Shown here piece by piece: positions 6,590 to 50,338 of a stretch of 50,403 nucleotides of DNA (position 1 is its first letter; each line of letters opens with the position of its first letter). The stretch lies in the sequence record NC_047998.1; one strand, given 5' to 3'. Position numbers and translations under genes: made by a program. The stretch comes from Shigella phage Sfin-1. Under the pieces are notes generated by a model that saw only the letters and a list, made by a program, of their open reading frames with translations, ran no database searches and was not told the DNA's origin.

Positions 6590-6642
6590 AAATATACCCT
6601 CTTTGTTTAACATTTAGTGCTATTTTACCATATTGCAGGCAT

Positions 6643-19624: not shown

Positions 19625-19650
19625 AAGATAACCAATCAGGAGTTAATGCG

Positions 19651-29467: not shown

Positions 29468-29496
29468 TTGAATCGTTGTATCGTTTACGATATAAT
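29468..29496 (+). promoter_or_regulatory. Sigma70-like promoter (TTGAAT, 17 bp, TATAAT) for the rightward HTH/primase genes
   Basis: Canonical hexamers and spacing directly upstream of the 29548 gene. Confidence 0.5.
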
Positions 29497-29534
29497 ACAC
29501 GGCATACAGTAAACGTTTTTAGCAAAAAGTGCTA
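29491..29534 (-). promoter_or_regulatory. Promoter cassette for the helicase operon (TAGCACTTTTTGCTAAAAA plus 22 bp plus TATTAT), divergent from the plus-strand promoter
   Basis: Dyad in minus orientation; its -10 overlaps the TATAAT of the plus-strand promoter. Confidence 0.45.
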
Positions 29535-30000: not shown

Positions 30001-30007
30001 AACAAAC

Positions 30008-30046
30008 GACGCGTAGCGGGTTAACATCCTTCTACGCGTTTTTTAT
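30008..30046 (+). terminator. Putative intrinsic terminator
   Basis: CGCGTAG...CTACGCG stem followed by a T-run (long loop). Confidence 0.4.
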
Positions 30047-31019: not shown

Positions 31020-31033
31020 GCCCGTTGCAAGAC

Positions 31034-31076
31034 CAATAGCACAATGATAAAATCTGTGTTTAGCAATTCGTGCTAT
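31034..31076. promoter_or_regulatory. Paired partial and full dyad element upstream of the tail fiber gene
   Basis: ATAGCACAATGATAAAA (plus orientation) and TTAGCAATTCGTGCTAT (minus orientation) 8 bp apart. Confidence 0.35.
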
Positions 31077-31096
31077 TTACTTAAGGAGTTTACGCT

Positions 31097-32881
31097 ATGG
31101 CTTTATACAGACGCGGTACTGCATCAATGGATGCAGACGGAACGGTTCACGGAACCGATACAAAATGGAAAGATCAGCTTGCTCTTATTCGCGTAGGTGC
31201 AACTATCGTGTTCCTTGAGCAACCAATTAAGCTGGCTGTGATTAGCGATATCGTTAGTGATACAGAATTAAAGGCTATCTCTACTGATGGTCAGACTGCC
31301 GATGACGGTAAGTATGTGATCCTACTTAATGACTCTCTAACCGTTAACGGATTAGCTCAAAACGTCGCCGAGACTCTGCGATACTATCAAAGCAAAGAGA
31401 CTGAGATTGCGGAAGCTATAGACCTGATAAATCAGCTTGATATGAATAAACTTGAGCAAATAGTTGCTGATGTGAATCAGGCGAAATCTGATTCTCAAGC
31501 TGCGCAAAATCAGGCTGAATTAGCGCGTGACGCAGCCAACGCTGCACGCGATGAAACTAACTCAATCAAGAATCAGACGCAACAGATTGTTGACGGTGCT
31601 GTCGGTAGCATCAATGCGGCTAAGGATCAGGCTATAACCGATGTGCAGCAAAAAGAAAATTCATCCATCACTCACATTGACTCAGAAGAAGCGGCGGCGA
31701 TTCAGGCAATTAATGACGCGAAAGGCGATCTGTCAGGTTACGTTAATGACGCTCAAACGGCAGCACAAACGGCTACCTCTGCAAAAAACGACGCTCAGGC
31801 AGCACGTGACGAAGCGGTAAGCTCAAAAGATGCTGCTGCGGTAAGTGCTCAAGAAGCAAAAGACGCAGCTAACAGCATCAATGCTGAAAATCTTTTAACT
31901 AAGGATGGCAATCTAGCTGGTCTTGATGATAAAAAAGAGTCAAGAAAAAATATTGGGTTAGGTGAAAATGATGCTGTTAACTTTCTTACTATTAACACCA
32001 CGGGAGCTATAGGGGCAGGAAGGAACTCATGGAACGGTTCTAATTGGGGTAGTCAGTCCATATTGTCATCATTGATGATTATGTCACCTGATGGAATATC
32101 CACACCAGGGATTTACGTCAGAAAAGAACATAGCGATAATGGTTATGCTGGGGCTTTATTATTTTATGAAGGGGCAAACTACTTCGAGACTAACAATAGA
32201 TTTAGAGCTAATCAGTTTTTATGCCAGAAAACATCTATGGGTTACAACCAGATGTGGTCTGCTTCATGCTTCCAGGGTAATGCTTACACTGCCGATAGTG
32301 GCGCTGAAAACTATCAATCACTTATTGCTGGATCGTGTGGTACAAGGGGTCAAGGGTATGTTGGCGGCGTAGCTTTTGGCATGATGACTACGGGCAATCC
32401 TGAATGGCCCAGGGCGCAAATATCAGTAGGCGCTCAAGATAGGGATGGGGCAGGCAATATTGGTTTGCAAATGCATTTCAGGTTTATGGCTTCAGGGCAA
32501 ATATCTTACGCTGGACCGCAAGGGGCTGGAAGTTTCCAACAGATTCCGGCATCTGACAGAAATATAAAGCACAGCATAAAGGATGATGAATCAAGCATTG
32601 CATACAACAACATAAAATCAATGAGATTTAGGAACTTTATCTTTAACGATGATGAGCAAGAAAGGGTAAGGCGAGGTGTTATAGCTCAGGAGATAGAAGA
32701 GATCGACAATCTATATGTTAAGAGAAGGATGTATGAGAGCCACGAGCTAAACGGGCCAAAAGTTGAAAGGCTTGAGCTTGATACAACTCCTTTATTGCTT
32801 GACACTATGAGAGCTTTACAGGATACAATAAAGAAAGTTGAAGAGTTACAAGAAGAGATAAAAATGTTGAAGTCCAAATGA
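31097..32881 (+). CDS. Tail fiber protein with C-terminal intramolecular chaperone (peptidase S74-like) domain
   Basis: Long Ala/Gln/Asp-rich coiled-coil region; C-terminal segment ...DRNIKHSIKDDESSIAYNNIKSMRFRNFIF...GVIAQEIEEI... matches the self-cleaving chaperone domain as I recall it from T5 pb1 and endosialidases; AAGGAG RBS. Confidence 0.75.
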   Translation: MALYRRGTASMDADGTVHGTDTKWKDQLALIRVGATIVFLEQPIKLAVISDIVSDTELKAISTDGQTADDGKYVILLNDSLTVNGLAQNVAETLRYYQSKETEIAEAIDLINQLDMNKLEQIVADVNQAKSDSQAAQNQAELARDAANAARDETNSIKNQTQQIVDGAVGSINAAKDQAITDVQQKENSSITHIDSEEAAAIQAINDAKGDLSGYVNDAQTAAQTATSAKNDAQAARDEAVSSKDAAAVSAQEAKDAANSINAENLLTKDGNLAGLDDKKESRKNIGLGENDAVNFLTINTTGAIGAGRNSWNGSNWGSQSILSSLMIMSPDGISTPGIYVRKEHSDNGYAGALLFYEGANYFETNNRFRANQFLCQKTSMGYNQMWSASCFQGNAYTADSGAENYQSLIAGSCGTRGQGYVGGVAFGMMTTGNPEWPRAQISVGAQDRDGAGNIGLQMHFRFMASGQISYAGPQGAGSFQQIPASDRNIKHSIKDDESSIAYNNIKSMRFRNFIFNDDEQERVRRGVIAQEIEEIDNLYVKRRMYESHELNGPKVERLELDTTPLLLDTMRALQDTIKKVEELQEEIKMLKSK

Positions 32882-32883
32882 TA

Positions 32884-32909
32884 AAATCCCCGCATTGCGG
32901 GGATTTTTG
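32884..32909. terminator. Bidirectional intrinsic terminator between the tail fiber and SSB genes
   Basis: AATCCCCGC-ATTG-GCGGGGATT hairpin flanked by A- and T-runs. Confidence 0.65.
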
Positions 32910-33323
32910 TTAGAACGGGATATCATCATCGAAAGTTGATTGAGGATTTGGCTGTGGCTGTGATTGCGTTCGCTGTTGTTGCTGCGGTGATCGTTGTTGA
33001 TTGCTTTGTCCTCGTTGACTAAATACCAACTTCGGGAAGTCAGCGGCCTGCAATGAATTGTAAACCGTTCCATTGTGTTCACGTGATGAGATCTTCAACG
33101 TCTCGCATGATACTGATACGACGCGACCAACCTGGAACGCTTCACGATACCAGTCAGCAAGACCAGGCTTTCCACCGTCGCTAAAAAAGAATGTGTAGTT
33201 GGTGTATTCTCGATCTCCATCTCGAGGCTTGTAGCTCTCTGCCAGTTCGATTATATAAGTATTCCCGCCGTTACGTTCAAGAATCTTAGGTTCTTTTCGG
33301 ATCTCTCCAGTGATAATATGCAT
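32910..33323 (-). CDS. ssb: Single-stranded DNA-binding protein
   Basis: Gln/Pro-rich linker and canonical acidic C-terminal tip DDDIPF; AGGAGAG RBS. Confidence 0.7.
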   Translation of the reverse strand: MHIITGEIRKEPKILERNGGNTYIIELAESYKPRDGDREYTNYTFFFSDGGKPGLADWYREAFQVGRVVSVSCETLKISSREHNGTVYNSLQAADFPKLVFSQRGQSNQQRSPQQQQRTQSQPQPNPQSTFDDDIPF

Positions 33324-33369
33324 GATTTTCTCTCCTAAAATTTATGGGCGACCGAAGCCGCCCGTATTG

Positions 33370-34017
33370 TTATTCAAAGTTGGTGATTGATTGAGATTGT
33401 ACAGGTTTCGCGCTCGTTGCTTCAACCTGTTTTTTCTGTTCCGGTTGCGCCGGGCGAATGCCGCGAGCCTTGCCGATCTCAAACTTCGCCTTCAGTGCGT
33501 TGTAATGATCCTGAATTATTGATTTGCTCGCCGTGTCAGTCTGACGGTAGGCGCTGGCCCATACATCCTTCAGTGATTCGATATCTTCGCACGCATCAAG
33601 TTCTTTTTTCCAGTCCTTGACGGATTTCACTGCAAGCTGCGCATCGTCGTCACTCTGACTAATACCAAGCGCCGCAGCGAGAGAGTAGCGTCGAGCATAA
33701 GTCATTGCGGAACCTACACCTTGAGGATCGCGTTTTGCAATCGGCATCATCATGAAGAATTTGGCCCACTGCCCTGATTTGTGAATCAGCATAGTTTCAA
33801 GATGGAAAGTCGTTTCTGTACTGGTATCCAGCATTGATTGCAGGATCATGATATCGTTATCGGTTAACGCTGGGCTAACTGCCGCCATCATCGCATCAAG
33901 AGTTGCGTATGAGTTCTTCAGGTGATTGTTTTTAGCGTCCTTCTTTGCCTTCGCGAATTTATTTCGAGCATTAAACAGTGCTGGGAGGATTTCGTTTGTT
34001 TCCGGTGATAATTGCAT
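33370..34017 (-). CDS. erf: Erf-family single-strand annealing protein
   Basis: KNSYATLDA and MTYARRYSLAAALGI motifs typical of the Erf family; start at the ATG with AGGAG RBS. Confidence 0.65.
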   Translation of the reverse strand: MQLSPETNEILPALFNARNKFAKAKKDAKNNHLKNSYATLDAMMAAVSPALTDNDIMILQSMLDTSTETTFHLETMLIHKSGQWAKFFMMMPIAKRDPQGVGSAMTYARRYSLAAALGISQSDDDAQLAVKSVKDWKKELDACEDIESLKDVWASAYRQTDTASKSIIQDHYNALKAKFEIGKARGIRPAQPEQKKQVEATSAKPVQSQSITNFE

Positions 34018-34091
34018 CTTAACTTCTCCTGATTGGTGTATGAGGTGCATTATAACACCTCATTAATTATTTGTTTAGCTATTTGTGCCGT

Positions 34092-35156
34092 TTACTTGTT
34101 TTGATATCGTACCCATGACGGCGTTTCAAGTTCGATCTCGCTTGCATCGCCAGCATATCCTGGCCAAACGTCCATCTCAGAGCAAGCCTTATAAGTGTGG
34201 ACTACGCTAATATACTGATTGCGACCTATTCTGATTTGCTCCATAGTCATGCGGTAAGCAAGGGCAATGTAAGGTTCCTTTTTCTCCTGTGCCAGCAATC
34301 GAACTACGATCGGAATATCTTCCGGGAAGTTTCCTTCAAATGCTCCAGCCTGAATTGCACGCCGCAATAGGTCATGCTGTAAGGACATTTTAAGATAATA
34401 CCCGTGATTGTATGCCAGTCTCGGGAACTCTAACGGGTTGGCGCTCATCGTGGTTTTGAAGTCAGTGATAATCAGAGCTTCAGGAAAAATCACGTCTTCA
34501 AATACCGGATCGCCATTCTCATCATAACCAGTCAGCACACGACCTGGAACATTCTCTTTGTAGTCCAAATGGTCAAGTCGAACCTTAACCTTGACGCCGG
34601 ATATCTCACCGAAAATTGAGATCTCACGCTGCGCAGTTTCGCTATTGATGCACGCTTCATGATCTGGGTTTTGCTCAAGAATGGCCCTCATCTTCATGCA
34701 GGCATCATATTTATCAGCGTCAACCAGTTGCTTTCCTTCAGCGCGCGCCTCAGCTTCAGCAATCAGTTCAATGAGATATTGAACATTGAGATCTTCACCG
34801 CAATCAACCATCATTTTGATGAGGTCAGGGTACTGCTTACCGGATGTACCTTTCAGGCCAAAAGATTTTAATTTTGCTGCCAGTGCCGTTTGCGAAGTAA
34901 TAAGATCTTTAAACTCTGACGGAGCAGGACAACGCGCATACGTTGCAGTAAACAGATCTCGACTCTCAAAGTTAGTGTGCGACTGAGTGCCGAACTCCAG
35001 CGCTTTAGTAGTCTCGTTCTTCTTGAATCGCCAGTTAGCCGGGCAAGTCTGATAAATTTCTGCAAGGCTCGAACCGCTTACATACTCTGCCGCCCAACCT
35101 TCGTTGCTATGATACTCGTCATTAGAAAGCTGACTTGATGTGAATACCTGGAACAT
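34092..35156 (-). CDS. Recombination exonuclease (PD-(D/E)xK, YqaJ / lambda-Exo-like)
   Basis: Position upstream of erf and ssb; candidate D...E.K nuclease core (ITDFKTT); GAGGGAG RBS. Confidence 0.5.
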   Translation of the reverse strand: MFQVFTSSQLSNDEYHSNEGWAAEYVSGSSLAEIYQTCPANWRFKKNETTKALEFGTQSHTNFESRDLFTATYARCPAPSEFKDLITSQTALAAKLKSFGLKGTSGKQYPDLIKMMVDCGEDLNVQYLIELIAEAEARAEGKQLVDADKYDACMKMRAILEQNPDHEACINSETAQREISIFGEISGVKVKVRLDHLDYKENVPGRVLTGYDENGDPVFEDVIFPEALIITDFKTTMSANPLEFPRLAYNHGYYLKMSLQHDLLRRAIQAGAFEGNFPEDIPIVVRLLAQEKKEPYIALAYRMTMEQIRIGRNQYISVVHTYKACSEMDVWPGYAGDASEIELETPSWVRYQNK

Positions 35157-35682
35157 TTCGTTTATCTCCCTCGTTTACGATGAATCCATTATAGCCATTA
35201 ACAGCGTTTAGTCAATCGAATACATGTAATTGGTGTGTAATTGCGTGTCTATATCGCTCAAGTTACAACCAGCGCCAATGTAATCAATTACTTAATCCTG
35301 TTTTTATGTTGTGTATATTGCGTAATACTTGTAACCGCTTTTTCTTAGAAATACAAAGATATCCATGAATAGAATCAAGATTGATTATATTTTGAACAAA
35401 TATGATAGAAATTTGACGAATCAATCAAATCACCTGTTACACGATATACAACTGTTACACAACAATAATTATATATATAAAGCTAAAATTAAATATTATC
35501 TATCTATATATATTATATAGAGTTTTTATCATATCCCCCTGCTGTCGGATGGGGTTGATTTTGTAACACCCGTTCCGGTTACAAAAATAGACACCTGTTA
35601 CACGAAAAAATTGTAATCGCGCTATTGCAATAAAAGTAAATGCGACATACAATGAAATCACACTAACGACGAGGACATACAA
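35157..35682. promoter_or_regulatory. Divergent control region B: TA-rich tract, repeated CTGTTACAC / GTTACA half-sites, TTGCAA-17-TACAAT promoter
   Basis: Strand-switch region; CTGTTACAC at 35433, 35451, 35595; GTTACA/TGTAAC core at least 7 times; shares a 16-bp TA-rich element (CTATATATATTATATA) with region A. Confidence 0.55.
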
Positions 35683-35913
35683 ATGAAAAAGTTAATCACC
35701 ATTATCGCTGCGGCATTCATCCTGACTGGTTGTGCTCAGAATCTTAAAAATGGCGACTGCGTTACTTACGCATACGGTTCTTGCATGATGCGATTCGTTG
35801 ATGGTCAAAAGGTTCCTGCTGGCGAAATTGATATGCGATTCAAAGGTCTGTCATCCGACGACGATCAGGGCAACTTTAGCGGCAAGGTGTCAATCAAAAC
35901 TAAAGAGTGGTAA
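35683..35913 (+). CDS. Small lipoprotein, candidate superinfection-exclusion protein (Llp/Cor-like)
   Basis: Signal peptide with lipobox LTGC; 76 aa; adjacent to the tail-tip and receptor-binding region. Confidence 0.5.
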   Translation: MKKLITIIAAAFILTGCAQNLKNGDCVTYAYGSCMMRFVDGQKVPAGEIDMRFKGLSSDDDQGNFSGKVSIKTKEW

Positions 35914-35915
35914 TT

Positions 35916-36872
35916 ATGGGACAAGGAATATATATAAACCTAAACGACGGTCGCCCGGCAATGGAGATAACTTCAGGGCTTCGCGCCCCGTCATGGTGTG
36001 GACCTATACAGGCTGACGGAGTTGATTCATCTGGATCGGTTTTTGATTTTGGTCTGCAAATGAGTCCAGGATCTACCGCTTTTTGCCTTCCATCTCAGGC
36101 TATCTACATAGACGATATGGATTACATCCCGGAGGTGTATTATTTGACTAGTTTTCAGAAGGTCAATGATTCAACCGGACGAATAACGGTAGGTAATTTT
36201 AACGGGCACGGTGGAAGGAGGATGAGATTTTATGGAAACTGCTACGAAATCCTCCCCGCTCAGGCTGGAAATCAGGGGATACTTGTTAACGATTCAACGA
36301 ACTTCGCAGCTATACCGAATAACGCCAGATTGATGAGCGCTGCATTTGTTGGGGGGATTCAGGTTAACGGTCAGGCTCAGTTGCCAGTACAGGGCGTTCC
36401 TTTCGGTATGTGGGATAATCCAAACGTAACACTTGAATCTGACGGCAATACAATATGGTGCAGGGATGCAAACTATAACGGGATTGATGACGTTGGCGCT
36501 AGCGTATACGTGCAACTCGTAATATTTAATAACACTCCACCACCCCCAGGGCCAGGAATAACCATGAGTAATCCTGCTGGTCAGATCGTCTTCTCAAGCG
36601 TTAGACGCCCATTCGTTCTCGGCGGGACTATGGCGATAAATGACGGGTGGCAGTGGTGTGGTGGATTTTTCCCAATACTAAGAACAGGTACGATATGCAG
36701 AGTTACAGGTGGATATAATAACATTCGATACAAGGGCGTGTGTATGAGCGGCGGTAACGTGAGAAGCGCCCCAGGAACAAGAGTAGGTAATTATTCCACC
36801 CAAAGCGGAGCGCAATTCCCCTTCAATATAAACATTTCAATGCCAATTCCTTTCACTCCGAACATGTATTAA
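35916..36872 (+). CDS. Hypothetical protein, candidate receptor-binding / tail-associated protein
   Basis: About 318 aa, Gly/Asn-rich beta-like sequence with a PPPPGPG linker; location beside the J-like gene and lipoprotein; no motif-level support. Confidence 0.35.
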   Translation: MGQGIYINLNDGRPAMEITSGLRAPSWCGPIQADGVDSSGSVFDFGLQMSPGSTAFCLPSQAIYIDDMDYIPEVYYLTSFQKVNDSTGRITVGNFNGHGGRRMRFYGNCYEILPAQAGNQGILVNDSTNFAAIPNNARLMSAAFVGGIQVNGQAQLPVQGVPFGMWDNPNVTLESDGNTIWCRDANYNGIDDVGASVYVQLVIFNNTPPPPGPGITMSNPAGQIVFSSVRRPFVLGGTMAINDGWQWCGGFFPILRTGTICRVTGGYNNIRYKGVCMSGGNVRSAPGTRVGNYSTQSGAQFPFNINISMPIPFTPNMY

Positions 36873-36898
36873 AAAAAGGGGCCAATCGGCCCCTTTCT
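36871..36898. terminator. Bidirectional intrinsic terminator between the 35916 gene and the J-like gene
   Basis: GGGGCC-AATC-GGCCCC hairpin with A7 upstream and a T-rich tract downstream. Confidence 0.7.
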
Positions 36899-36899
36899 G

Positions 36900-39800
36900 T
36901 TACCAGACACCAACAACCACTCGACCCCCGTTAGGTAAGTTGACCGTGATACCGTTATTGTTTATCTGAACCGTGTTATTTGTTCCGTTAAATGCAAACT
37001 CTCCGTTATTTGCGTAAATTCTACCCCTCACGGTTGCATTCATGAATGAAGCGTCGCCATTCTTGTTTATGGCCCACCCATTACTCCCATCCCAATTGTT
37101 AGATTGAATCCAGTTTCCAATCATGGCATTAGTAATAAAGCCATCCTTGATGATCGCACTACTTAGAATAACCTGGCCATTCTCAACAACGAATGGGTAC
37201 TGAGTCTGACCATTCATCCCTGTCATGATTGCAAATCGTGATGCCTCAAACAAAATCTGCGCCTTAACCGCAGCTCCGGAACCAATCAGAGACATAGCCA
37301 TGCCTGCACTGTATTCTTGTCCGTTATACTTCAGACCGAGCTTGACGCCGTACATTGCACCAGTCGAATCCGCATTGCTCCACGAATCAAGTTTTTGAGA
37401 AAGCGCTGCCTCATTATTCCCAAGCCTCGCGCTTAACGACAAGTCAGCTTGCGTTCTCGCCTCAGTCTCGTTTGCTATAGCCTCTCTGATATCAGTCAAA
37501 CTTGCCTGGATATCATCACCAATCTCTGCCTTGAGTTGGTCAATTTCACGCGATAGCGCTCCAGTCTCAGTTGCGATAACTTCACGCAATTCGCTGTTGC
37601 TAGCGCTAATCTGATCGCCAAAACTTGCTTTCAATTGCTCGATCGCCGTCACTCGTGCCTGCGTCTCATCAGCAATAAGTTTCAGTGATTTCGTGTACTC
37701 AGCTTTTCGTTTTCCGTTCTCCTTCTTCATGTAGATCGCGTCTTTGTCATTGGCGAGCGCGTTTTCTATTGCTGCCTCTGCGTTAGCTGCGTTCTGCGCC
37801 GCGTTGTCGGTTGCGTTATCAACAAGCCACTCGTAACCAGGCGAGTTTTCGATATCGACAGAAATCTCCCCAATGATATCGTCAACGTTTGTTGATGCCA
37901 TACCTCTGACAAAATCAGTCCACTGAGACACGTTACCGATCCTATCAACCGTCCTTACCCGATACCACACAATATTCCCGCCCGGCATCGGTGAATGATA
38001 ATACTCATGCTGCGGATACGGGATCAGAGAGAGTAAACTCGCATTGTCAACCGTTCCATCCGGTGACTGTTGCAACTCTGTATAGGCCGTATCTCCAGAA
38101 CCATCAGAGAACCCCCATTTTGTACGGATACCAAAAACAACATCATCCGTAGCTGTAAGGTTAATCGGTCGACCCGGCTCACCTTGTTTGCCCGTCAGCG
38201 TCGCAGCTACGATATTTGACCATCCTGAAGTCGTACCGGAACCAGCTACGGAGCGAACGCGAACCTGATAGTTGCCAGCGTAAATACCTTCAACGTATAC
38301 CTCTTTGTTTGCTGTCTGTGGTACATTTTGCCAGTTGCCATTATCCTTTCTCCACTGAACATCATAGAAAACTGCGTACGGCACTTTATCCCAGCTTACA
38401 ATCATCGTCTCTACGCTCATCCCCTGGACGATTCGTGACTCAGATGACACTTGCACGTTTTCCGGTCTAGGGATCTGGTCTGGTTCAACGATACTCGTCG
38501 GTCTGTCGTCTATGTTCACACCGTAATCAATCTCATCGTACTTGTTAGGATCGTACTCCACCGCAGTAATCTTGTAGGTAAATTCCTCATCGTCATCACC
38601 CTTATCGATTTTTGTCACGACGTACTGCTGTAACGCAATGTCTGTGCGGTCGATAGCGAATACCGTGTTAGGCTTCACAGGAAAGCCAAAGCCAATGTTA
38701 ACCTCTATAGTCTTACCATCCGCACTAACACTTGAGATTGTGCGCTTCACGGGCTTGCCATCTGGCTTATTTACGATAATAAAGTCACCCGCGCGTGCAT
38801 CCACCCGGAACGGCAAGAAAATCTGACTTCCAGACACTTCGAGCAAGCGCCCTGATAGGTTCATCGTCAAGTTACTTGACCAGAAGTTATCAGCTATTGC
38901 CACAACATCTCCGATTGTCGGGATCATACCCTCAAGACCGGTAGCGAAGTTTACCGTAGTGCTGCGGAGGTTGGTTTTCAGAATCCATCTCCCGCGTCGG
39001 TTGGCCTCGCTTCGACGTGTGCAACCGATCGCTGTAATGCTGGTTACGTTATTACCGAACCGCAGAGTCGCCTCACGATCGAATACTGGCTCAACGTCCT
39101 GTTGATACATGTTTTGCTCGTCGTCAAACATCACGTTACACGTCGTGTACATACTCTTTTCGCTTGCGAACGTATAGGAGAAGTCACCATTAACAACGTT
39201 GTCGTTAGTGAAGATGTAAGCAGGCTCACGCGGTCTGTCGATGATTACCGAGATGCTTTCGCCATTCCAGAAGCTCATACCACGGAAGATTGAGCAAATA
39301 TCTCGAATCACCTTATACGCATCAGTCTGTGACTGAATTATCACGTCGCAAAGGTAGCGAGGCTCCGTACCGCCTTTCCCGTCAGGAACCATCTGGTCGC
39401 AATATTGCGCCGCCTCATATAGCGCCCATTTATCGACAGATATTCCAAGCTCTTTCTGATCCAGCCCGTAACGCTGATTAATCATCAAGTCATAAAGAAC
39501 CCAAGCCGGATTATTAGTCCACGCCTTCTTAAAAGTGCCATCCCAATTTCCGTTATAAGTTCGTGATTCCGGATCGTAGTTTGACGGAACGTTTACAATT
39601 TTCCAGCGCTTACGAATTGAGATCGTAGGTAACTGGTTTGGGAACATCTTCGAGTCGAACTCTACGAAAAGAAGACCTGTCAGAGGGTAACGGAATTTGG
39701 CATCAATCACCTCGGCATAGCTCTTTACCTGAATCGCATCAACAACGTTTGAATTATCAGAATCTGGAGTCTTTCGAACAATCCTGAATATAACCTGGTT

Positions 39801-40349: not shown

Positions 40350-40397
40350 GATGCTTACCTTTTTGTGCTATTTATCGGTGGACTCATTATACAGGCG

Positions 40398-40421
40398 AAA
40401 AAAAACCCGCGCAAGGCGGGT
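40398..40421 (-). terminator. Intrinsic terminator (CCCGC-GCAA-GGCGGG hairpin plus U8)
   Basis: Strong hairpin and 8 T on the minus strand after the gpI-like gene; core identical to the hairpin at 42583..42597. Confidence 0.65.
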
Positions 40422-40426
40422 TAATT

Positions 40427-42536: not shown

Positions 42537-42576
42537 TGATTTTTCCTCTTGTTTGCCTGCAACCATTCTACAGCTA

Positions 42577-42598
42577 CAAAAAACCCGCGCAAGGCGGG
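42577..42598 (-). terminator. Intrinsic terminator, duplicate of the hairpin at 40406..40420
   Basis: Identical CCCGCGCAAGGCGGG stem-loop followed by U6. Confidence 0.55.
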
Positions 42599-42614
42599 CT
42601 TTTGTCATAAGGTG

Positions 42615-42968
42615 CTACTCCATAGATGTAAACTGCTCCATAAACGTGACGTTAATCTCCATCACGTCGCGTGATACTGGCTTCGCACCCAAGCTGTTAG
42701 GCTTGACTACCCATACCCCGATCTTACCGTCCGGTGGAGTCCATGCGAACGGCTTTATGCGGTGAGAGTTGCAGAAGTCGTAAACAGACATGAAATCTTC
42801 CCCAGCATAGACAACTGAATACTCGCGTCGCGTGGTGTTAAATCCAGAAGATGCAAGCTGCATGTAGCCGTTTCCAAACTGTATGGATCTGTCATTGTTG
42901 GTAGTGGTAAGTGAGCCGCCACCCCCTTGAACCTGCGTACACCAACTGAAAGTGTCAAGCGTCGCCAT
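42615..42968 (-). CDS. Minor tail protein (lambda gpM-like)
   Basis: About 117 aa from the ATG with AGGAGG RBS; sits between tape measure and gpL homolog. Confidence 0.65.
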   Translation of the reverse strand: MATLDTFSWCTQVQGGGGSLTTTNNDRSIQFGNGYMQLASSGFNTTRREYSVVYAGEDFMSVYDFCNSHRIKPFAWTPPDGKIGVWVVKPNSLGAKPVSRDVMEINVTFMEQFTSME

Positions 42969-43034
42969 TATTAGCCTCCTGTTTTTCCTGAATGTAATTG
43001 TAAACCTCACCGCCCTGCGAACAAGACTCTCGAA

Positions 43035-45842
43035 TCATTTTTTGAACATCATTTCTACGCCCTGAGAAATTCCTCTCGGATCTGAACCGTTGTCAACTTT
43101 AACCTCCATACCCCTAACATCAACGACCGTCCCGCCTGCTGACTGGTTCGCTGCCTTCGGTGCGGATTTAGATGCGTTAAATCCAGAGGTTGCAACACTA
43201 CCCGCAGCGGCAGCAAGCGAGGTAACGGCAACGCCTGAAGATAAAGACCTAAAACCAGAGACGGCAGGCGTAGGAGTTGCCTGTGATGCCGCAGAAGCGC
43301 TAGAGGTCAATCCACTTGCAAAACTCCATGTCTTACCTCCCGTCATGCCTGAGATCGTATTGAAGATTACCATCTGAGCAATCATCTTGATAATCATGCT
43401 AATGATATTTTTCGCAAAGTCCTCAAAATTTGCCTTACCTGTAGTAAGGAATTGGGTCATCATATCACTCATTCCGTTAAGTGAACTTGACGCGATATCA
43501 TACACGTTGCCGTACATATCCATTGCAGAATCGCCGTAATCTGCAAATGCGCTTTCAGCACCAGCTAACCAGTCAGCGCGCTTGGCATCTTCCGCAGCAT
43601 AGTAATCATTTTGTGCCTTGATCATGTTCTGGAGTTTTTCATCTCCTTCGCTGCCACCTGCATTAATATAGTCAGTGGTGATCTTAGCCAATTCCGCTTG
43701 TCGTTCCATTTCTCGAGTGCTCATCCCGCGAGACGCGTTTAGCTGCTCTGTAGCTGCCGTCAAATCATTGACAAATTTCAGTGATTTATCGGTAAGTGCG
43801 TTCAACTGCTGCTGCTTAACAATCTGATCGCCAATCTCAGCCTTTTGTTTCGCAAGCTCTAAAACCTTCTCTTGGTTTGCAAGTAGTGCTTTTTCTTCCG
43901 CAGATAGCTGACGCTTAGAACTAGCTTCTCGAAGAACAGCAATTGTAGCCTCAGTCGTAAAAAGCGCCTTTCTCTGTGCTGATATTTTTTGCCCGATCTC
44001 CTTGTGCTCCTGCAAAACCTTAAGCTGCGCTTTGAGTGAAATTAACTCCTTATCGAATTGCTCTGTAGGTGAGCGTAAAATTTTCGACTGCTTATTTCGT
44101 TCACGGTTTCGCTTTTCGATCTCTTTAGCTTCTTCCTTGATGGCGTCCTTAGTTTCCTGGCTATACTGCTTTTCAAGAGTACGGCGCTGCTTCATTGCTT
44201 CAATGTATCCCATCTCACCTTTTTCAACACGGGCGTTGATGGCATCAAGCTCTGAAGCTAACTGATCGTAGTTGTCACGAGAACTTTTTACAATATTCTC
44301 CTGTTCCTTTAGTACATCAGCGCCGAAATCACTCATTCCAGGCAGAGACTGCGTAGCCTTAATTGCAGAGGCTATAAAGTTTGAGATGTACTCATCACCC
44401 TTCGCCAGAATCATTTTTACCTGAATTACCGTACCCTGAACTACGTCAATAATCAGGTTTAATGCTCCGAGAGTATGATCCCCAACCCACCCCCACGCAT
44501 CAGAGGCCCACTGCTTAATATCGTTCCACATTTTTTCCAGAGGGGTAGCATTATCAGCGATCGACTTCATTCGTTTTTCCATTACATCGGCGAATAATTT
44601 CGTGGCTTCAGACACTGCCTCTGTTTCACCCTTAGTACGGCTTAGCGTATCGATATATGTCAGTTGCCCTTTTTCTAAAAAGTTGTATTGCTCGTTAAGT
44701 TTAGCCAGACCCTTTACAGGATCGCTTGCGATTTTATCGAACTCAGCGATGATTTTACTTGCTGATTTACCGGTTGCTGTCGACCACTCAGCGGTAGCCT
44801 TTGTGATGTTCTGAATCTGCTCTCGCGTATACTTCCCCGTACTGGCAAGTTCAGTAACAATCTCACGAATGCTTGAAATTGTTGAATTGCTCGTCTGAGA
44901 CACCTTTTTAGCAACAGAATCAAGTTCTTCAGCCGTGACTCCTGCATAACCTCCAGTCTCAACAAGAGCCTTCTGCATATCAGTTATTGACTTGTAAGAG
45001 TCATAACCAGCTTTCGCAAGAAGACCTAAAGAGCCGACAAGAACACCAACACCAACTGTGACCGGATTAATATAGCTGAGCAATACCTTAAACGTATTCC
45101 CGATCCCGCCGAACGAGTCCTTGATTTGACCACCTTGCTGGATGGCAACCATCCAAACTGGCATACCGGACGCAAGAGATGTAACGACGTCGGTAATCTG
45201 TGCAGGAAGCATTCGCATTGCCTGCCTATATTGCCCCGCGCTAATACCTGCGGCATTCATGGCTCGACCCTGCTCTTTCAGTTTTGCGATCAGTGGCGCT
45301 GCTTCATTTGATAGTCCAAGCTGAGCCGCTTTCAGTTCCATTAACTCTGCGTGAGTTTTGCCAATAGCGTTAACCTGACTGTTCAGGGAATCCATGAACG
45401 CTTTGTTTTTCGCTGCTGCCTGCTCTTTTGCTTTCGCTTCCTGCAATGCTGCCTGCCCCTCTTCAGTAAGCATGGCTCGGCTGCGAGCAAGTTTTGCATT
45501 TTGCATGTCCAGCATTTCACCCAAACGGAAAAATGTTTCATCTGGAACAACGCCCTTTTGCCAGAGTTTATCAAGCTGCTGAGATGCAATCTTCAGCCTT
45601 TCCATTTTTGATACTGTAGGATCGATTGCCTTTTCTACAGCCTCGTACTCTTTGCGCTGGCGCTTAAGTTGCTCAGCGTGCTCTTTAGCCTTCTGTTTTG
45701 CAACCTCGGCCTCATTGATTAAAGACCCCATAGAGTCAGCGGCTTGGTCGTTAGCTTTTGAAAACTCTTTCAATGACTTGACGGCTCGCTGCACTGTCGA
45801 CACATCAACGTCAAGCGATAGACCTGCTACCTTATCAACCAT
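43035..45842 (-). CDS. Tail tape measure protein
   Basis: 935 aa, extended coiled-coil region and Gly/hydrophobic C-terminal part; start at the ATG with AAGGGGGG RBS. Confidence 0.9.
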
Positions 45843-45861
45843 ATAACCCCCCTTATATACA

Positions 45862-45882
45862 AAAAAACCGCCAGACGGCGGC
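45862..45882 (-). terminator. Attenuator or terminator hairpin between the chaperone and tape measure genes
   Basis: CCGCC-AGAC-GGCGG hairpin plus U7 on the minus strand. Confidence 0.5.
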
Positions 45883-46203
45883 TTAGTTATTCTGCTTAGC
45901 AATCATTTCAAGCGCTTTCGCTTCCATGATCCTAACGTCCTGCAATGCCAGTTCTTCATCTTCTATTTTATAGATTTTAAACAACATAGGCAAAACATTA
46001 TAGTCAAGACCATAAGCGCCAGCGCCTGAACTTCTCCACTGAGTGAGCATTGATGTAAAAACATTCCAAGCCTTCACCATTTCAGCGTCGCCAATTATCG
46101 TTTCAGGTTCCTCGTCTTCATAGTCTGAAAGACTTAAACCAACCGATCGCAATTGTTCCTCTGTTGGCGGCTTCTGATATAACAGATAGACCGCCCTTTT
46201 TAG
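45883..46203 (-). CDS. Tail assembly chaperone T-part, expressed as a G-T fusion by -1 frameshift
   Basis: ORF open in the -1 frame from the A_AAA_AAC heptamer (mRNA sense of 46203..46209) to 45883; no ATG of its own. Confidence 0.6.
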
Positions 46204-46517
46204 TTTTTTGCGCGGTGTCCGGCGAGAGCCTTGATGTAAGTTGCTGTCAGGTTGTACGCTGCTGAAGGATAATACTGAACCAGTTTTCGCGCATTTTCTT
46301 CGTTAAATTCTTCTTCAAGGTTCCATCCTGACGCGATCTTGGTAATGAACTCGCTGTCGTTCATTTCTCCTTGGTTGGCATACATATCCTGAACTTCTTT
46401 ACTGGAAAGGTGGCGTACAGTGAAAATGATCGTTGCATCTTCACCGTTAGGCATGGTGAAGGTGACTGGAAGTTTGAAGTCTGGAAGTTGACCAAGAACG
46501 AAATTAAATTTAGCCAT
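46200..46517 (-). CDS. Tail assembly chaperone (lambda gpG-like)
   Basis: 105 aa between major tail and tape measure genes; ends with a slippery heptamer and stop. Confidence 0.65.
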   Translation of the reverse strand: MAKFNFVLGQLPDFKLPVTFTMPNGEDATIIFTVRHLSSKEVQDMYANQGEMNDSEFITKIASGWNLEEEFNEENARKLVQYYPSAAYNLTATYIKALAGHRAKN

Positions 46518-46540
46518 GATATTTCTCCTGATTGGTTAAT

Positions 46541-46558
46541 GGCACTTTTTGTTAAAAG
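46541..46558 (+). promoter_or_regulatory. Isolated dyad element copy (TGGCACTTTTTGTTAAAA) without a -10 partner, antisense to flanking tail genes
   Basis: Sequence match to the early-cassette dyad; no -10 hexamer at 22 bp. Confidence 0.35.
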
Positions 46559-46630
46559 AGAATAGTGCAAACTTGATACGATGATTTTACAGAAATGAAT
46601 AAGGGGGCGCAAGCCCCCTGTGGATATGAT

Positions 46631-47299
46631 TTAGGCACCAGGTGATGCCAGAGCGGATGAAACGAAAGTGAAATCACCCTTCAGGGATACGGCGAGTTGT
46701 ACCGTTTCCATTTCGTTTACTTGCGTAGATGGAATGTCGTTAAAAGACAAGATACCAGCCCACATGCGCATCTCGTTCGCTTTTGGAACATACATCCGAA
46801 CCGCAGTTACCTGACCAGAAGAATCCAGCTTACGCAGAATAGGATAGATAGGGTTATCAAATTCGTGCGCGAAGGTGTACGTTAGCGAGATTGCAGACTT
46901 AAACGTCGGGATCTGCTGCTCTTTATCGTCAGACAAACACTGATAAGTGTAATACTGCTGCTCGCCGCCGTCCTGACCAATCTCCTGTACGCAAGGGATC
47001 TCAGTCCAGCCAGTAATTTTTGCAAAGCTCATTGTACCGCCAGCCGGGAAAACAAGAGCATCAGTAGTGTCAATCCCAGCAAGAGTAATGCTTGTTTCTT
47101 GGGCGTCAGTAACAATTAGTACTCGACTAACCATCTTAGCCCAAGTTGACTGAGTTACAATAACGTAATCACCTTTCGCCAAGTCGCCCTTAGATGCAAC
47201 CGTAGCAACAGGATTTTTTGCGTTAGTGACAGCGGTCGCCTCGATCTCTTCTCCGCGAGAGGTTTCCACGAAAATTTGCGCGCCATTTGGTAAGTGCAT
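46631..47299 (-). CDS. Major tail (tube) protein
   Basis: 222 aa directly upstream of the chaperone pair and tape measure. Confidence 0.7.
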   Translation of the reverse strand: MHLPNGAQIFVETSRGEEIEATAVTNAKNPVATVASKGDLAKGDYVIVTQSTWAKMVSRVLIVTDAQETSITLAGIDTTDALVFPAGGTMSFAKITGWTEIPCVQEIGQDGGEQQYYTYQCLSDDKEQQIPTFKSAISLTYTFAHEFDNPIYPILRKLDSSGQVTAVRMYVPKANEMRMWAGILSFNDIPSTQVNEMETVQLAVSLKGDFTFVSSALASPGA

Positions 47300-47300
47300 A

Positions 47301-47699
47301 TTAAGTCTCCTTTGTGTCTACTCGTACTGTAAAGCGAACCGGAATCATCCACCCGCTTTCGTGTTTAACAATTTGATGCACGATTGCACCCTCGAAAATA
47401 TAACCAACGTTAAGCATTTTACCATCTTTGAAAAAATCAGCAATCTCTTTTGCTTTCAATCTTGCCTCGTCAACCCCTGATCCTGGAGGGAAAACCACTC
47501 CAATTTGCACGATAGCAATGTAAGACTTGCATTTTCTGTCAATGGATAGATAAAGTGTATCGCCTTCTATGTAATTAAATCTAAGCCACATACCGCCATC
47601 CTTCGGTGGTGTGAAGTTGCGGTTTTCCATGTAGTGAGGAAAATCTCTGTACTTTGACAGAAATGCGGCTCTAGCCGCCGCTGATAACTCATAGTGCAT
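47301..47699 (-). CDS. Tail terminator / tail completion protein (putative)
   Basis: Position immediately upstream of the major tail gene; 132 aa. Confidence 0.45.
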   Translation of the reverse strand: MHYELSAAARAAFLSKYRDFPHYMENRNFTPPKDGGMWLRFNYIEGDTLYLSIDRKCKSYIAIVQIGVVFPPGSGVDEARLKAKEIADFFKDGKMLNVGYIFEGAIVHQIVKHESGWMIPVRFTVRVDTKET

Positions 47700-48132
47700 T
47701 TTGTTGTCTCCTTGCTTGCTTTATTGCACCAGACATATACGATCGCAGCCTCAACGCCACCAATCCTACTACGCCGCTTGGCGCTTGCTGTGAGTGACCG
47801 TATTCAAGTGCGTTTGCATAAATCAACATGTTTGAAAAGTGAACCGAGGTTATCGCACCTCCACGGCTGAACATGCCATAAGTCTTTGCCTGTTCCTCAC
47901 CGCGTACTACACCGCCAGTTTTATCATATCGGTTTAATGCGTAGCTGGGTATTTCGTTAAAAGTTATCTGCCAGTTACCCTTAAAACGCCCAGTATCGAC
48001 AGGAGATCGGCTAACAAGAGCGCTATGCACATCTCTTACAAATATCTCAATAGCGTGCTCAAGAGTGCTCTCTGCTGCCTTAATCCACGCATCAATCTCA
48101 CCTTGAAATCTACGAATCTGATAATTAGCCAC
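47689..48132 (-). CDS. Head-tail joining / tail component (HK97 gp10-like)
   Basis: SPVDTGRFKGNW motif reminiscent of the HK97 gp10 family. Confidence 0.5.
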   Translation of the reverse strand: MANYQIRRFQGEIDAWIKAAESTLEHAIEIFVRDVHSALVSRSPVDTGRFKGNWQITFNEIPSYALNRYDKTGGVVRGEEQAKTYGMFSRGGAITSVHFSNMLIYANALEYGHSQQAPSGVVGLVALRLRSYMSGAIKQARRQQNAL

Positions 48133-48505
48133 CGACTGATACCCTCCTTAATACTGGACGATAGGCGATAGGTTCTAATGACGCCTGAACCGGACGAGCG
48201 TCAACTACAACATGACGAACACCGTCAATCTCTATATAGTCGCCTTCGTTTATTTCATGATCATTATTGAAGATCCCCAAAAGGTCGGAGGCGCGTATTG
48301 TTTCTCCGTCAACCTCCCGAGCATTTGGTCTGCGAGTGGCTCCAGATATTGGAATAACCTGTTCCATCGGTGGAATTTCGAATCCATTTTCATCGTATCC
48401 ATATTCACCTTCCTTTATCAGGTTCATAGGTCTTGATGGATCTGTGAAGAAAGCCACGCCTTTGCGAGCCATTCTTTCAATTTGTGAGTAGTTCATTAGT
48501 GGCAT
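48125..48505 (-). CDS. Head closure / head-tail adaptor protein (putative)
   Basis: Position between connector and gp10-like genes; 126 aa. Confidence 0.4.
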   Translation of the reverse strand: MPLMNYSQIERMARKGVAFFTDPSRPMNLIKEGEYGYDENGFEIPPMEQVIPISGATRRPNAREVDGETIRASDLLGIFNNDHEINEGDYIEIDGVRHVVVDARPVQASLEPIAYRPVLRRVSVGG

Positions 48506-48906
48506 CCCCCACGGAGTCCGGTCATTAATGCGAACCTACCACGGCGTCGCGCTTTAAGTTGTTCAAACATCTTACCCCACGGCGTCGAAAGCATTGTGTT
48601 TCCTGACTGGTTTTTCGTAACCTCACCAAAAGTCTGACTAAACTCACCGCTCAGTGAGAAAGACGTAACGCGTCGTGAGTAAGATTCCAGATCTTCATCT
48701 TCACCTTTTAGTGCTCCGTCAAGGAAGGCAAGATGTAAAGCATAAAGAGCAAGCGCTTTGACGTATGCGTCTTTGAAGGTCTTATGGCATACGAATAGCT
48801 CAGCCATTTCAACCCATGCATAAAGAGTTTCATCTGGAACTTTGCGAAGTGCAGGGACCAGCTTTCGCATTTGCTCAACAACTGAAATTAAAGTTTCTTG
48901 ATTCAT
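48496..48906 (-). CDS. Head-tail connector protein (gp6-like, putative)
   Basis: Helical ALALYALHLAFLDGA segment; start at the ATG with GGAG RBS. Confidence 0.45.
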   Translation of the reverse strand: MNQETLISVVEQMRKLVPALRKVPDETLYAWVEMAELFVCHKTFKDAYVKALALYALHLAFLDGALKGEDEDLESYSRRVTSFSLSGEFSQTFGEVTKNQSGNTMLSTPWGKMFEQLKARRRGRFALMTGLRGGCH

Positions 48907-48919
48907 AACCAAACTCCAC

Positions 48920-48943
48920 AAAAAAAGGCGCTACATGAGCGCC
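48920..48943 (-). terminator. Intrinsic terminator (GGCGCT-CATG-AGCGCC plus U7)
   Basis: Hairpin and T-run on the minus strand. Confidence 0.55.
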
Positions 48944-48950
48944 TTGATGA

Positions 48951-49238
48951 TTAATATTCGCCGCCGTCCTCAAGTTCTTTAACACTTTTACTATCCCACG
49001 GATCAGGCTTTTTAAGTTTAGCCATCTCTGCGCGGATTTTCCGGTTGGTGGCACTGTCGTCTTTTACTTCGATTTCTTCGCGAGCAATCAAGCAACGCAG
49101 CCCAGGCAATTCAAGTGCGGATGCTGGGAGTGTCACCTCTTCATCCGGGAGAACCTTTGCGAATGAGCCATCTTCAAGACGGAACATCTGAAGCGCCACA
49201 CCAACGTTTACGATAACAACAGTTTTTTCTTTAGCCAT
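48951..49238 (-). CDS. Hypothetical head-associated protein (95 aa)
   Basis: ORF between two terminators just downstream of the capsid gene. Confidence 0.4.
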   Translation of the reverse strand: MAKEKTVVIVNVGVALQMFRLEDGSFAKVLPDEEVTLPASALELPGLRCLIAREEIEVKDDSATNRKIRAEMAKLKKPDPWDSKSVKELEDGGEY

Positions 49239-49253
49239 TTTGATTTCTCCAAT

Positions 49254-49280
49254 AAAAAAGGGACCAACTAAGTTAGTCCC
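49254..49280 (-). terminator. Intrinsic terminator after the major capsid gene
   Basis: GGGAC...GTCCC hairpin followed by U6 on the minus strand. Confidence 0.6.
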
Positions 49281-49287
49281 TATAATA

Positions 49288-50247
49288 TTACACGCCAGTG
49301 ATTAAGACAATAGTCATCGGACGATAAATTGTAAGGCCAGTACACTTGGAGGTGCAAGGCACTTTGAAGTGCAGATCTTTCGGCTGTGCTGGCAGCATGT
49401 TAAATGCTTCCGGGATCTCGATGGACATATTCATCGGATTCTTTTCGTACACCAGCACGCCTTTAGTTCCAGCGCCATCGATATCTTCAAGTTCTGCGAT
49501 AGAGTCAATTTCGATACCAGCATTCTGAGACTTGAAATAGTCCAGATAAGACATAGTGGTTTCAGGCATACGAATAGCCAAAACCTTACGCATGGACGGC
49601 GGGATCAGAATATTGGTTGCTCGGTGCTGTCCGCGAGTAATCGTCTCGATGGTTTCGATGGCCTGAGTTAGTTCAGCTTCAGCCGTTTCTGGTTTTTGGC
49701 TAACTCCATCAATCCACTTACCTGAGGTAATTTTGGTGATGTTCGGATGGTTGAACACAGACACGATCTTGTGCGGTGCGGAGCCTTTGAACACCAGACG
49801 GTTAACCAGTTGGTCATGCGCTAGCTGACACGCACTTGCCTTGCGGGTTGACAGCGGTCGACCAGTTGCCTGACCTGCTTTGATTTCGTCGATTGAAATC
49901 AGGTACGCGTTACCCAAGCGGAACACCTTTCCGAACTCAGAAGTGCCAAGCGCATCAACCAGAGGCAGGTCATCGGTATAGTCAGCGATAATCTGCGCAG
50001 TACCAACCTTATCAAAGGTCATGTACTCAAACGTCTTGTCGGTCGGAGAGAGATCGGTTGTAACCGGGAACACACGGAGAGCAGAACCTGCCGGGTAGTC
50101 CTCTTCGTAAGACTGGCTCTTGATGCGGTGTAGCTCCTGAGCGGTCCAGATACCCATAGTTGCTGCTGCATCCTGTTTTACGCCAGCTTGGATCAGGTAC
50201 ATTTCAATATTGCTTTTATCTGCTTCATCAAATTTTTTAGTAGTCAT
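49288..50247 (-). CDS. Major capsid protein (lambda gpE-like fold, putative)
   Basis: 319 aa, AAGGAG RBS, terminator immediately downstream, position upstream of the head-tail connector genes. Confidence 0.75.
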   Translation of the reverse strand: MTTKKFDEADKSNIEMYLIQAGVKQDAAATMGIWTAQELHRIKSQSYEEDYPAGSALRVFPVTTDLSPTDKTFEYMTFDKVGTAQIIADYTDDLPLVDALGTSEFGKVFRLGNAYLISIDEIKAGQATGRPLSTRKASACQLAHDQLVNRLVFKGSAPHKIVSVFNHPNITKITSGKWIDGVSQKPETAEAELTQAIETIETITRGQHRATNILIPPSMRKVLAIRMPETTMSYLDYFKSQNAGIEIDSIAELEDIDGAGTKGVLVYEKNPMNMSIEIPEAFNMLPAQPKDLHFKVPCTSKCTGLTIYRPMTIVLITGV

Positions 50248-50302
50248 GATTACTTCTCCTTAGTTAATAAAAAAAGCGTGATTATGTTCACGGCTTCAAT
50301 AA

Positions 50303-50320
50303 TAGCACTTTTTGTTAAAG
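50303..50320 (+). promoter_or_regulatory. Isolated dyad element copy (TAGCACTTTTTGTTAAAG) upstream of the capsid gene, antisense orientation
   Basis: Sequence match to the early-cassette dyad between the capsid start and the upstream gene stop. Confidence 0.35.
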
Positions 50321-50338
50321 CGTCAAAGTGTTTTTGTG

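Follow-up and report, generated by a model that had tools for sequence, protein, structure and literature searches.

Reversed copies of a T1-family repeat lie within late promoters of Shigella phage Sfin-1, where they may act as operators

We analysed a short repeated element in the genome of Shigella phage Sfin-1 (NC_047998.1) and found three copies of it, reversed relative to the genes that they precede, embedded in the late promoters of the capsid, tail fibre and tail chaperone genes, where related phages largely conserve them. The window, that is the whole stretch of 50,403 bases that was analysed, is the complete, circularly permuted genome of a T1-like siphophage (Tunavirus, Drexlerviridae). 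We judge it reasonably probable that these late copies are working sites for the same regulator that would activate about 20 early and middle promoters, placed so as to hinder RNA polymerase. T1-like phages rank among the most frequent coliphages and contaminants of the laboratory; they have no polymerase or sigma factor of their own and, to our knowledge, the order of their early and late transcription was never explained.

The structural genes of the window are on the minus strand and run from terS (~6589) across the window ends and down to J (36900), and the early and replication genes occupy 6600-30000, in blocks of both orientations. Over the stretch 44000-50403, identity is 100% to Shigella phage Sfin-4 and 92.6-95.8% to the other relatives listed. 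The relatives used for the comparisons were drawn from IMG/VR and GenBank and are phylogenetically non-independent; all the counts given below are counts of distinct sequences and not of events. Transcription start sites were predicted from the positions of the -10 hexamers alone; for the late promoters they fall near 50292, 46577, 40379 and 31060. A generic sigma-70 promoter scan gave 35 hits in total against 32.5 in shuffled sequence, and for this reason only the top-scoring intergenic hits were considered.

The element corresponds to the 21-nucleotide (nt) direct repeat of the T1 family, aaATAGCACnnnTTGnTAAAA, which was described for phage TLS and mentioned for T1, Rtp and Rogue1; in TLS it was divided into T, G and A subtypes, and its function was left open among a stoperator, an enhancer and an UP element (PMC11447400). 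Its 15-nt box GCANNWWNTGNNAAA, which follows the pattern gcannwwntgnnaaa, has 22 perfect matches in the genome against 0.8 expected, and TAGCACTTTTTGTTAAA with at most 3 mismatches occurs 16 times against 0.23 expected. The same pattern is used in E. coli for the marbox, the site of the monomeric activators MarA, SoxS and Rob (PMC12052159), and all the perfect copies of the window, either forward or reversed, fit it. The first-pass annotation had called the element a dyad; it is instead asymmetric, with flanks (ATAGCAC and, opposite, TAAAA; hence ATA...AAA) that are both conserved and are not mirror images.

The late copies agree with the 21-nt consensus and read aaTGGCACTTTTTGTTAAAA, aaTAGCACTTTTTGTTAAAg and aATAGCACGAATTGCTAAAc. 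The TLS repeats were reported to be oriented with transcription, about 76 nt ahead of start codons (PMC11447400). The copies at 50305, 46542 and 31059 depart from this placement, since all of them are reversed relative to the flanking genes and lie 57, 24 and 23 nt, respectively, from the start codon. The features of the three late sites are the following.

50305..50319, plus strand: reversed T-type element GCACTTTTTGTTAAA, which fills the spacer of the minus-strand capsid promoter.
50299..50326, minus strand: capsid promoter, with -35 TTGACG at 50326-50321, a 16-nt spacer and -10 TATTAT at 50304-50299.
50277..50292, minus strand: terminator-like hairpin followed by a T run, directly downstream of the capsid -10, with the same layout in all lineages.
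31025..31053, plus strand: tail fibre promoter, TTGCAA-17-TGaTAAAAT.
31059..31073, minus strand: reversed G-type element GCACGAATTGCTAAA, which starts 5 nt past the fibre -10 and spans about -1 to +14.
46584..46612, minus strand: late promoter of the chaperone and tape-measure genes, with -35 TTGCGC at 46612-46607, 17 nt, and -10 TAAAAT at 46589-46584.
46542..46556, plus strand: reversed T-type element in the tail chaperone leader, at about +21 to +35 of the late promoter.
46574..46582, plus strand: extended -10 TGaTACGAT, exactly 20 nt past the element, with a predicted antisense start near 46589.

As for the capsid gene, the copy reported at 50303-50320 on the plus strand, antisense to the minus-strand genes, is there and reads TAGCACTTTTTGTTAAAG. 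The accompanying statement that it has no -10 is correct for the plus strand and incomplete for the minus strand, on which the copy is flanked directly by the -35 and the -10 of the capsid promoter. Read toward the gene, the region is TTGACG-c-TTTAACAAAAAGTGC-TATTAT, with an A-rich stretch upstream. Among the sigma-70 matches of the late region this promoter ranks second (10/12 plus TG, the extended -10 TGn being supplied by the GTGC of the element), and a promoter is annotated at the equivalent capsid site in phage Chapo. An antisense -10 was considered and rejected, given that the hexamer at +20 (TATGAC, within TGtTATGAC) lacks the final T and varies among relatives.

We compared the capsid upstream sequences of 59 distinct relatives from IMG/VR, whose capsid identity ranges from 57 to 98%. 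The reversed box is perfect in 53 of them and has one mismatch in 5, and the remaining sequence carries a 1-nt deletion inside the box, so that the placement in the spacer holds in 58/59. Its register is constant: a single nucleotide separates it from the preceding TTGnnn, and a TAT-type hexamer (TATnnT) follows with no gap. The -35 is TTGCAC, TTGACG, TTGACC or TTGAAC and the -10 is TATCAT, TATTAT, TATATT or TATTCT. In some lineages a G-type centre replaces the T-type one, with box-defining bases and register unchanged. The spacer is thus the most constrained part of the capsid promoter, as a protein site would make it. The predicted start site falls at or inside the 5' arm of the hairpin at 50277-50292; for this reason transcripts started at the promoter would lack the full stem, and those entering from upstream would terminate.

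This conservation also bears on whether the late copies bind any protein at all. It might be supposed that they bind none, and that their sequence is kept simply because it makes a good promoter core, with GTGCTAT as an extended -10 and an A-tract that shapes the spacer. In the capsid promoter the ATAGCAC end of the element does read TGcTAT, which combines an extended -10 with half of the -10 hexamer. However, spacers normally vary, and here all the 15 bases are the most conserved of the region; the lineages with the G-type centre have AATTC in place of the A-tract and still retain the box-defining bases; finally, the fibre and chaperone copies are downstream of the -10, where they could not serve as promoter core. 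We consider this explanation very improbable.

For the tail fibre gene, the first-pass annotation had described a partial and a full copy in opposite orientations at 31034..31076. The full copy, at 31057-31075 on the minus strand and upstream of the plus-strand fibre gene, is confirmed, and the partial copy ATAGCAC (31036-31042) is not conserved: it reads atagcac, gtatcac, gtggcac or atggcgc among close relatives, and we discarded it as a functional site. The fibre promoter has a 9/12 match plus TG, is annotated as a promoter in Chapo and, together with the capsid promoter, is among the best sigma-70 matches of the late region. The box lies over the start site in 15/17 related loci (7 perfect, 8 with one mismatch); both promoter hexamers are conserved and the spacer, including the partial copy, drifts. 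As for the capsid copy, a candidate antisense -10 was rejected, the hexamer at +20 lacking the final T and being variable.

The chaperone copy is organised in a different way. A copy at 46541-46558 on the plus strand, antisense to the minus-strand genes, had been reported correctly, and it reads GGCACTTTTTGTTAAAAG; the claim that it too lacks a -10 does not stand, given that the box (46542-56) is followed, after 20 nt, by TGaTACGAT (46574-46582). On this layout, the 46542 copy is a complete activator-type promoter directed away from the chaperone gene. The box is present in 31/51 distinct relatives, 15-26 nt ahead of the start codon, and it is absent as an indel of ~35 nt in the other 20. All the 31 carriers have TAnnnT at +20, in 9 different hexamers, and 27 of them have TGn in front of it. 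The late promoter is kept in 51/51 as TTGnnn-16..18-(T/C)AnnnT, mostly as TTGCGC-17-TAnnAT with the -35 in a terminator loop; in the window this loop belongs to the major-tail terminator (46619-46602). The two opposite-strand -10 hexamers, 46577-82 (plus) and 46589-84 (minus), are adjacent within 12 bp at 46577-46589, and each predicted start falls in the -10 of the partner. Because of this arrangement, a polymerase at one promoter should exclude a polymerase at the other.

The fusion of a late promoter with a terminator was observed at several sites (46584-46619, 40386-40422, 42561-42598 and 29987-30040). The hairpin loop of the terminator that precedes the promoter holds the -35 TTGCGC, TAnnAT follows after 17 nt, and the layout is conserved family-wide. 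The primase promoter has its -10 in the loop of the pir terminator.

In the early and middle regions the element is used in a regular way. Precisely, there are 18 intergenic copies that are both forward and perfect, and in 15 of them a hexamer of the form TAnnnT or CAnnnT follows the box at exactly 20 nt. The same 20-nt spacing between box and -10 is found in E. coli micF, whose box is centred at -41.5, the class II position (PMC9638938). This class II marbox geometry is shared by those 15 copies and by the 46542 copy, and it is absent from the capsid and fibre copies. This layout marks the family's early and middle promoters as being of the activator type and lacking a -35. The same boxes, subtypes and spacing occur in T1, in a Klebsiella Webervirus and in Vc1, a phage recorded on Vibrio cholerae. 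The reference case is the helicase promoter, with its divergent partner:

29518..29534, minus strand: perfect-dyad T-type element of the helicase promoter, whose -10 TATTAT is at 29497-29492.
29468..29496, plus strand: divergent sigma-70 promoter of the Pir gene, TTGAAT at 29468-73 and TATAAT at 29491-96, with the helicase element at its +16 to +30.

The -10 hexamers of this pair overlap on opposite strands (29491-96 plus, 29497-92 minus).

Two other copies, both forward, lie in late leaders.

40354..40371, minus strand: forward degenerate element in the J leader, ATAGCACAAAAAGGTAAG, with 2 mismatches in the window, overlapping the ribosome-binding site.
6606..6622, minus strand: forward A-type element without a -10 partner, between a terminator-linked CAATAT (6635-6630) and the terS ribosome-binding site.

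A half-element had been reported 5 nt upstream of the J start codon. We found instead that the element (ATAGCACAAAAAGG, 40371-40358, minus strand) ends 8 nt before the ATG and that it is a near-full forward copy in relatives, in which it reads GCACAAAAGGTTAAA, with at most one mismatch in 28/34 related loci (4 of these being perfect). Relative to the promoter TTGCGC-17-TATAAT (40414-40386), which is of the terminator-loop type, the element spans about +9 to +26 and its 15-mer box starts at +12; the TG of the box is turned into GG, the ribosome-binding site. The terS copy has a similar layout and a weak -10, and was found in 15/16 distinct relatives. A perfect match at 42601 was considered as a fourth late copy and rejected, being unconserved; we used it as an internal negative control, which shows that conservation of the element is not automatic. 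Class I activation from the reversed copies was also discarded, since the boxes either follow the -35 or leave only 23-24 nt to the start codon.

The first-pass annotation had suggested that one site acts as an activator site on early promoters and as an operator on late genes. We consider this suggestion plausible, on the basis of promoter anatomy, of conservation (position and orientation of the copies are kept across relatives with diverged flanks), of T1 reporter data for P_dam and P_pir and of the precedent of the E. coli pbpG promoter. Neither the embedding of the copies in late promoters nor the marbox match had been noticed in that annotation. The mechanism that we propose would be the following. 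At early promoters the element, 20 nt upstream of the -10 and centred near -41, would replace the -35 and give class II activation. The late genes would have strong, self-sufficient sigma-70 promoters that carry an embedded element: in the capsid promoter the reversed element filling the spacer, and in the fibre promoter the reversed element lying across the start site, could hinder polymerase directly. At the chaperone gene the reversed leader copy would build an activator-dependent divergent promoter whose -10 abuts the late one, so that polymerases would exclude each other, in the same layout as the helicase/Pir pair. The forward leader copies of terS and J may act as roadblocks. As long as the regulator is abundant relative to its sites, the early genes would be on and the capsid, tail and fibre promoters, their copies being occupied, would be held down, with late transcription lowered in the early phase of infection; these promoters would then be released as the regulator represses its own gene, or as replicating genomes, which carry ~25 sites each, titrate it. 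Two steps are borrowed by analogy: a reversed box past a sigma-70 -10 would mediate repression by Pir as at P_pir, and a marbox in a spacer would repress as at pbpG, whose layout, a box over the spacer or the start of an activator-independent promoter, is that of the capsid and fibre promoters.

A candidate binder is encoded by the phage itself:

29548..29997, plus strand: homologue of Pir (T1 Orf23).

The targets of Pir in T1 comprise two promoters that it activates, P_hol and P_dam, and two that it represses, P_recE and its own; the study defined no binding site. Pir alone alters the activity of P_dam and P_pir in uninfected cells, and a second protein, Orf65, acts as a repressor of pir and as an activator of P_orf65, a promoter that does not depend on Pir (PMC6737242). 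We placed the reporter fragments of that study on T1 by mapping the published primers. The P_dam fragment contains a forward T-type box, and the P_pir fragment contains a sigma-70 promoter with a reversed box downstream of the -10, in the layout of window positions 29468-29534 and of the chaperone site.

The Pir homologue belongs to PHROG 2856, transcriptional regulator, has a weak match to a Cro-type helix-turn-helix, and has homologues in 823 phage records. Its structural model has a mean predicted local distance difference test (pLDDT) score of 82, with an all-helical core that resembles Xfaso1 and N15 Cro. The N-terminal arm of 35 residues is predicted to be disordered and yet is rich in invariant residues (G11, D14, R16, N19, G20, N21, N22, G23, R26, G27, D29 and R33); most homologues have NGNNGTRRGKDKKPR, in which the last K is Q here. 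On this model, the N-terminal region may be a DNA-contacting arm, which could explain an asymmetric site. Taken together, phage Pir is the most likely binder of the T-type copies, somewhat ahead of the host proteins MarA, SoxS and Rob, which are a serious alternative or additional binders; Pir and the host factors may both bind the element.

Several points weigh against the activator-operator circuit read by Pir. The P_orf65 fragment of T1 has a perfect forward G-type box and yet is Pir-independent, and the P_hol and P_recE fragments have no box and yet respond to Pir. Action of Pir through the box thus fits 2 of the 5 reporters, and a third one if Pir reads T-type centres only; the other two are unexplained. 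A regulator made by the phage would leave the late sigma-70 promoters briefly open at the start of infection, which is an awkward design, and a monomer or a small dimer bound in a leader would be a weak roadblock. The chaperone copy is dispensable, being missing from 20/51 relatives, and, as an activator-type antisense promoter in itself, fits poorly with a plain operator. Finally, the relief of late repression is purely inferred.

Part of these difficulties would be removed if the element were a true marbox. In this case host MarA, SoxS and especially the abundant Rob would activate the early class II promoters at once and occlude the late ones, and Pir would be a secondary modulator. We regard this alternative as possible, though rather unlikely on balance. 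A factor already present in the cell would explain why late sigma-70 promoters are off from time zero, and P_orf65, with its perfect box, would no longer be anomalous. Besides the general pattern, G-type copies (ATAGCACGAATTGCTAAAAC) satisfy 20/20 positions of the stricter marbox consensus quoted in PMC2453137, and T-type copies fail it at position 8 (R) only. The copy nearest to the E. coli mar marbox, as read from the K-12 genome, is identical to it at 16/20 bases; it is the perfect element ATAGCACGTTTTGCTAAAA at 16111-16127 (plus strand), which stands at the junction of divergent early blocks without a -10 at 20 nt. The spacing of the early promoters is that of micF, although a centre near -41 is common to many class II activators and the geometry is unspecific. 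Asymmetric flanks and strict orientation suit a monomer with two recognition helices, but the match could also be a convergence on GCA-N5-TGC by a Cro-like dimer.

No phage-encoded MarA-like protein was found by phmmer with MarA and SoxS against all the six-frame open reading frames, and no AraC-type domain in a Pfam scan of 59 non-structural proteins. Orf65 was also considered as the binder of the G-type boxes and set aside. It has no recognisable fold or family and its homologues are limited to close relatives; it is unlikely to be this binder because G-type boxes occur also in Webervirus and in phage Vc1, beyond Orf65 homologues. The recorded hosts are almost all Enterobacterales, in agreement with a host factor, but boxes and spacing are no different in the phage recorded on Vibrio cholerae. 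None of rob, marA and soxS was recovered when the Keio collection was screened with the T1-like phage LL5 (PMC7229145), although redundancy could hide them, and the action of Pir alone on P_dam and P_pir in uninfected cells is also at odds with a purely host-driven circuit. In the literature that was searched, no T1 transcriptome, no defined Pir site and no link between Rob and T1 were found. Rob is abundant and is activated by bile salts in the gut. A broader idea, which we advance only tentatively, is that early transcription in Drexlerviridae runs on host stress activators: about 25 near-consensus marboxes per genome would recruit MarA, SoxS and Rob, the reversed ones would silence the late genes, and replication would titrate the proteins, as a built-in timer.

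The reversed copies could also be, mainly, promoters of antisense RNAs acting on late messages, rather than operators. The 46542 copy has a conserved extended -10 at canonical spacing, and its transcript should run into the major tail gene from the 3' end. In contrast, the capsid and fibre copies have no conserved antisense -10, past 46589 the antisense strand shows neither an evident terminator nor a conserved structure, and no Rfam family matches anywhere in the window, a result for which we also rejected an RNA-level element. As a general account, this is unlikely. The idea that the late copies match by chance, or are what is left of decaying promoter cassettes moved by recombination, to which the unconserved match at 42601 and the drifting partial copy at 31036 would correspond, is hardly tenable and is already contradicted by the comparative sequences, given that about 0.8 perfect matches are expected genome-wide and that the three reversed copies keep position, orientation and sequence over the whole range of capsid identity.

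We return to the operator reading in order to compare it with known systems. The repeat of TLS has the same sequence and the same three subtypes, and both the capsid copy (as DR7, on the negative strand) and the J copy (as DR8) appear, without comment, in its supplementary table; the TLS paper has no discussion of reversed copies, of their embedding in late promoters, of the fixed 20-nt spacing or of the marbox match. Host marboxes have the same consensus as the phage element and, at micF, the same spacing, but the host copies are degenerate and the phage ones near-perfect, and a regulator of phage origin, Pir, is known to act on at least two box-bearing promoters. Repression from a marbox within the core promoter occurs at rob, purA and hdeA. 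At pbpG, a marbox in the promoter spacer leads to direct repression by MarA, SoxS and Rob (PMC12052159). We also observed that the pbpG promoter spacer of E. coli K-12 (locus 9960-9985) holds GCACTTTTTGC, an 11-mer of the phage T-type core, beside a -35 TTGACG as in the phage capsid promoter.

In phage lambda, CI at OR2 activates PRM from about -42 and represses the divergent PR. The likeness consists in one Cro/CI-like protein which would activate from about -42 and shut off an overlapping divergent promoter (P_helicase/P_pir, or the antisense and chaperone promoters); the phage analysed here differs in having a single site, no cooperative operator array and no lysogenic repressor, with ~25 genome-wide reuses that are mostly plain activator sites. 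Bacterial overlapping divergent promoters reportedly have adjacent or overlapping -10 elements (Warman et al. 2021), like the opposite-strand -10s at 46577-46589 and 29491-29497. In this case, unlike there, one partner appears to be activator-dependent, and this dependence would make the divergent pair a regulated switch. Mycobacteriophage L5 stoperators were cited as an analogy for the repeats (PMC11447400). They are similar in being asymmetric, repeated and located in transcribed leaders, and the terS and J copies are oriented in the sense direction; the differences are the opposite orientation of the three reversed copies, the clear role of most copies as parts of promoters, and the absence of a prophage repressor. 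Thus the repeat itself was already known, and the logic of activating from -41 and repressing within the core is textbook knowledge (lambda OR2, marboxes). New are the reversed copies inside late promoters, their strict conservation there, the divergent pair at the chaperone gene and the consensus marbox in micF geometry.

We also report some observations on the neighbouring promoters. Of 20 element-dependent promoters, 12 have the -10 framed by a perfect inverted repeat of 6-9 bp, whereas 6 bp is attained in only 8% of random windows. The -10 is in the loop or in the 3' arm, as at 13355-13395, 9690-9730, 19589-19630 and 29470-29517; the repeat could have a role in attenuation, in promoter melting or in the processing of read-through transcripts. 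A conserved CATCGAAACGA-like box is found at the predicted transcript start, 5-6 nt past the -10, of the element promoters and of P_recE (35188-35160), and a leader/ribosome-binding motif, ACCAATCAGGAG, is recurrent; both occur also in Webervirus and in phage Vc1. Upstream of erf, at 34074-34088 (minus strand), there is a forward A-type element with 1 mismatch, and the TATAAT at 19 nt from it overlaps the first ATG of the annotated erf frame; the true erf start codon is probably ~30 nt downstream, after ACCAATCAGGAG. The recE promoter TTGACT-16-TATAAT is the best sigma-70 match of its region and has no element; its T1 counterpart is the Pir-repressed P_recE (PMC6737242). Upstream of recE, at 35250-35650 (minus-strand reading), an AT-rich non-coding stretch of ~400 nt contains at least 7 repeats of GTAAC/GTTAC type (GTGTAACAGGTG, GGTGTTACAA, GGTTACAAG and others); this stretch could be an origin of replication or a target of a second regulator.

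The repeat was already present in the genome papers on T1 and TLS, with no function assigned to it, and Pir has been known as a dual regulator without a known site. A repeat found at class II distance in early promoters and inside the cores of late ones unites the two in one testable circuit. If the late copies were inert, a corrected promoter map for this phage family would still be useful. If instead the host reading were true, the timer would need no dedicated late regulator, and phage development would be tied to the multidrug-resistance regulon of the host, that is to the antibiotic- and stress-response state of the cell.

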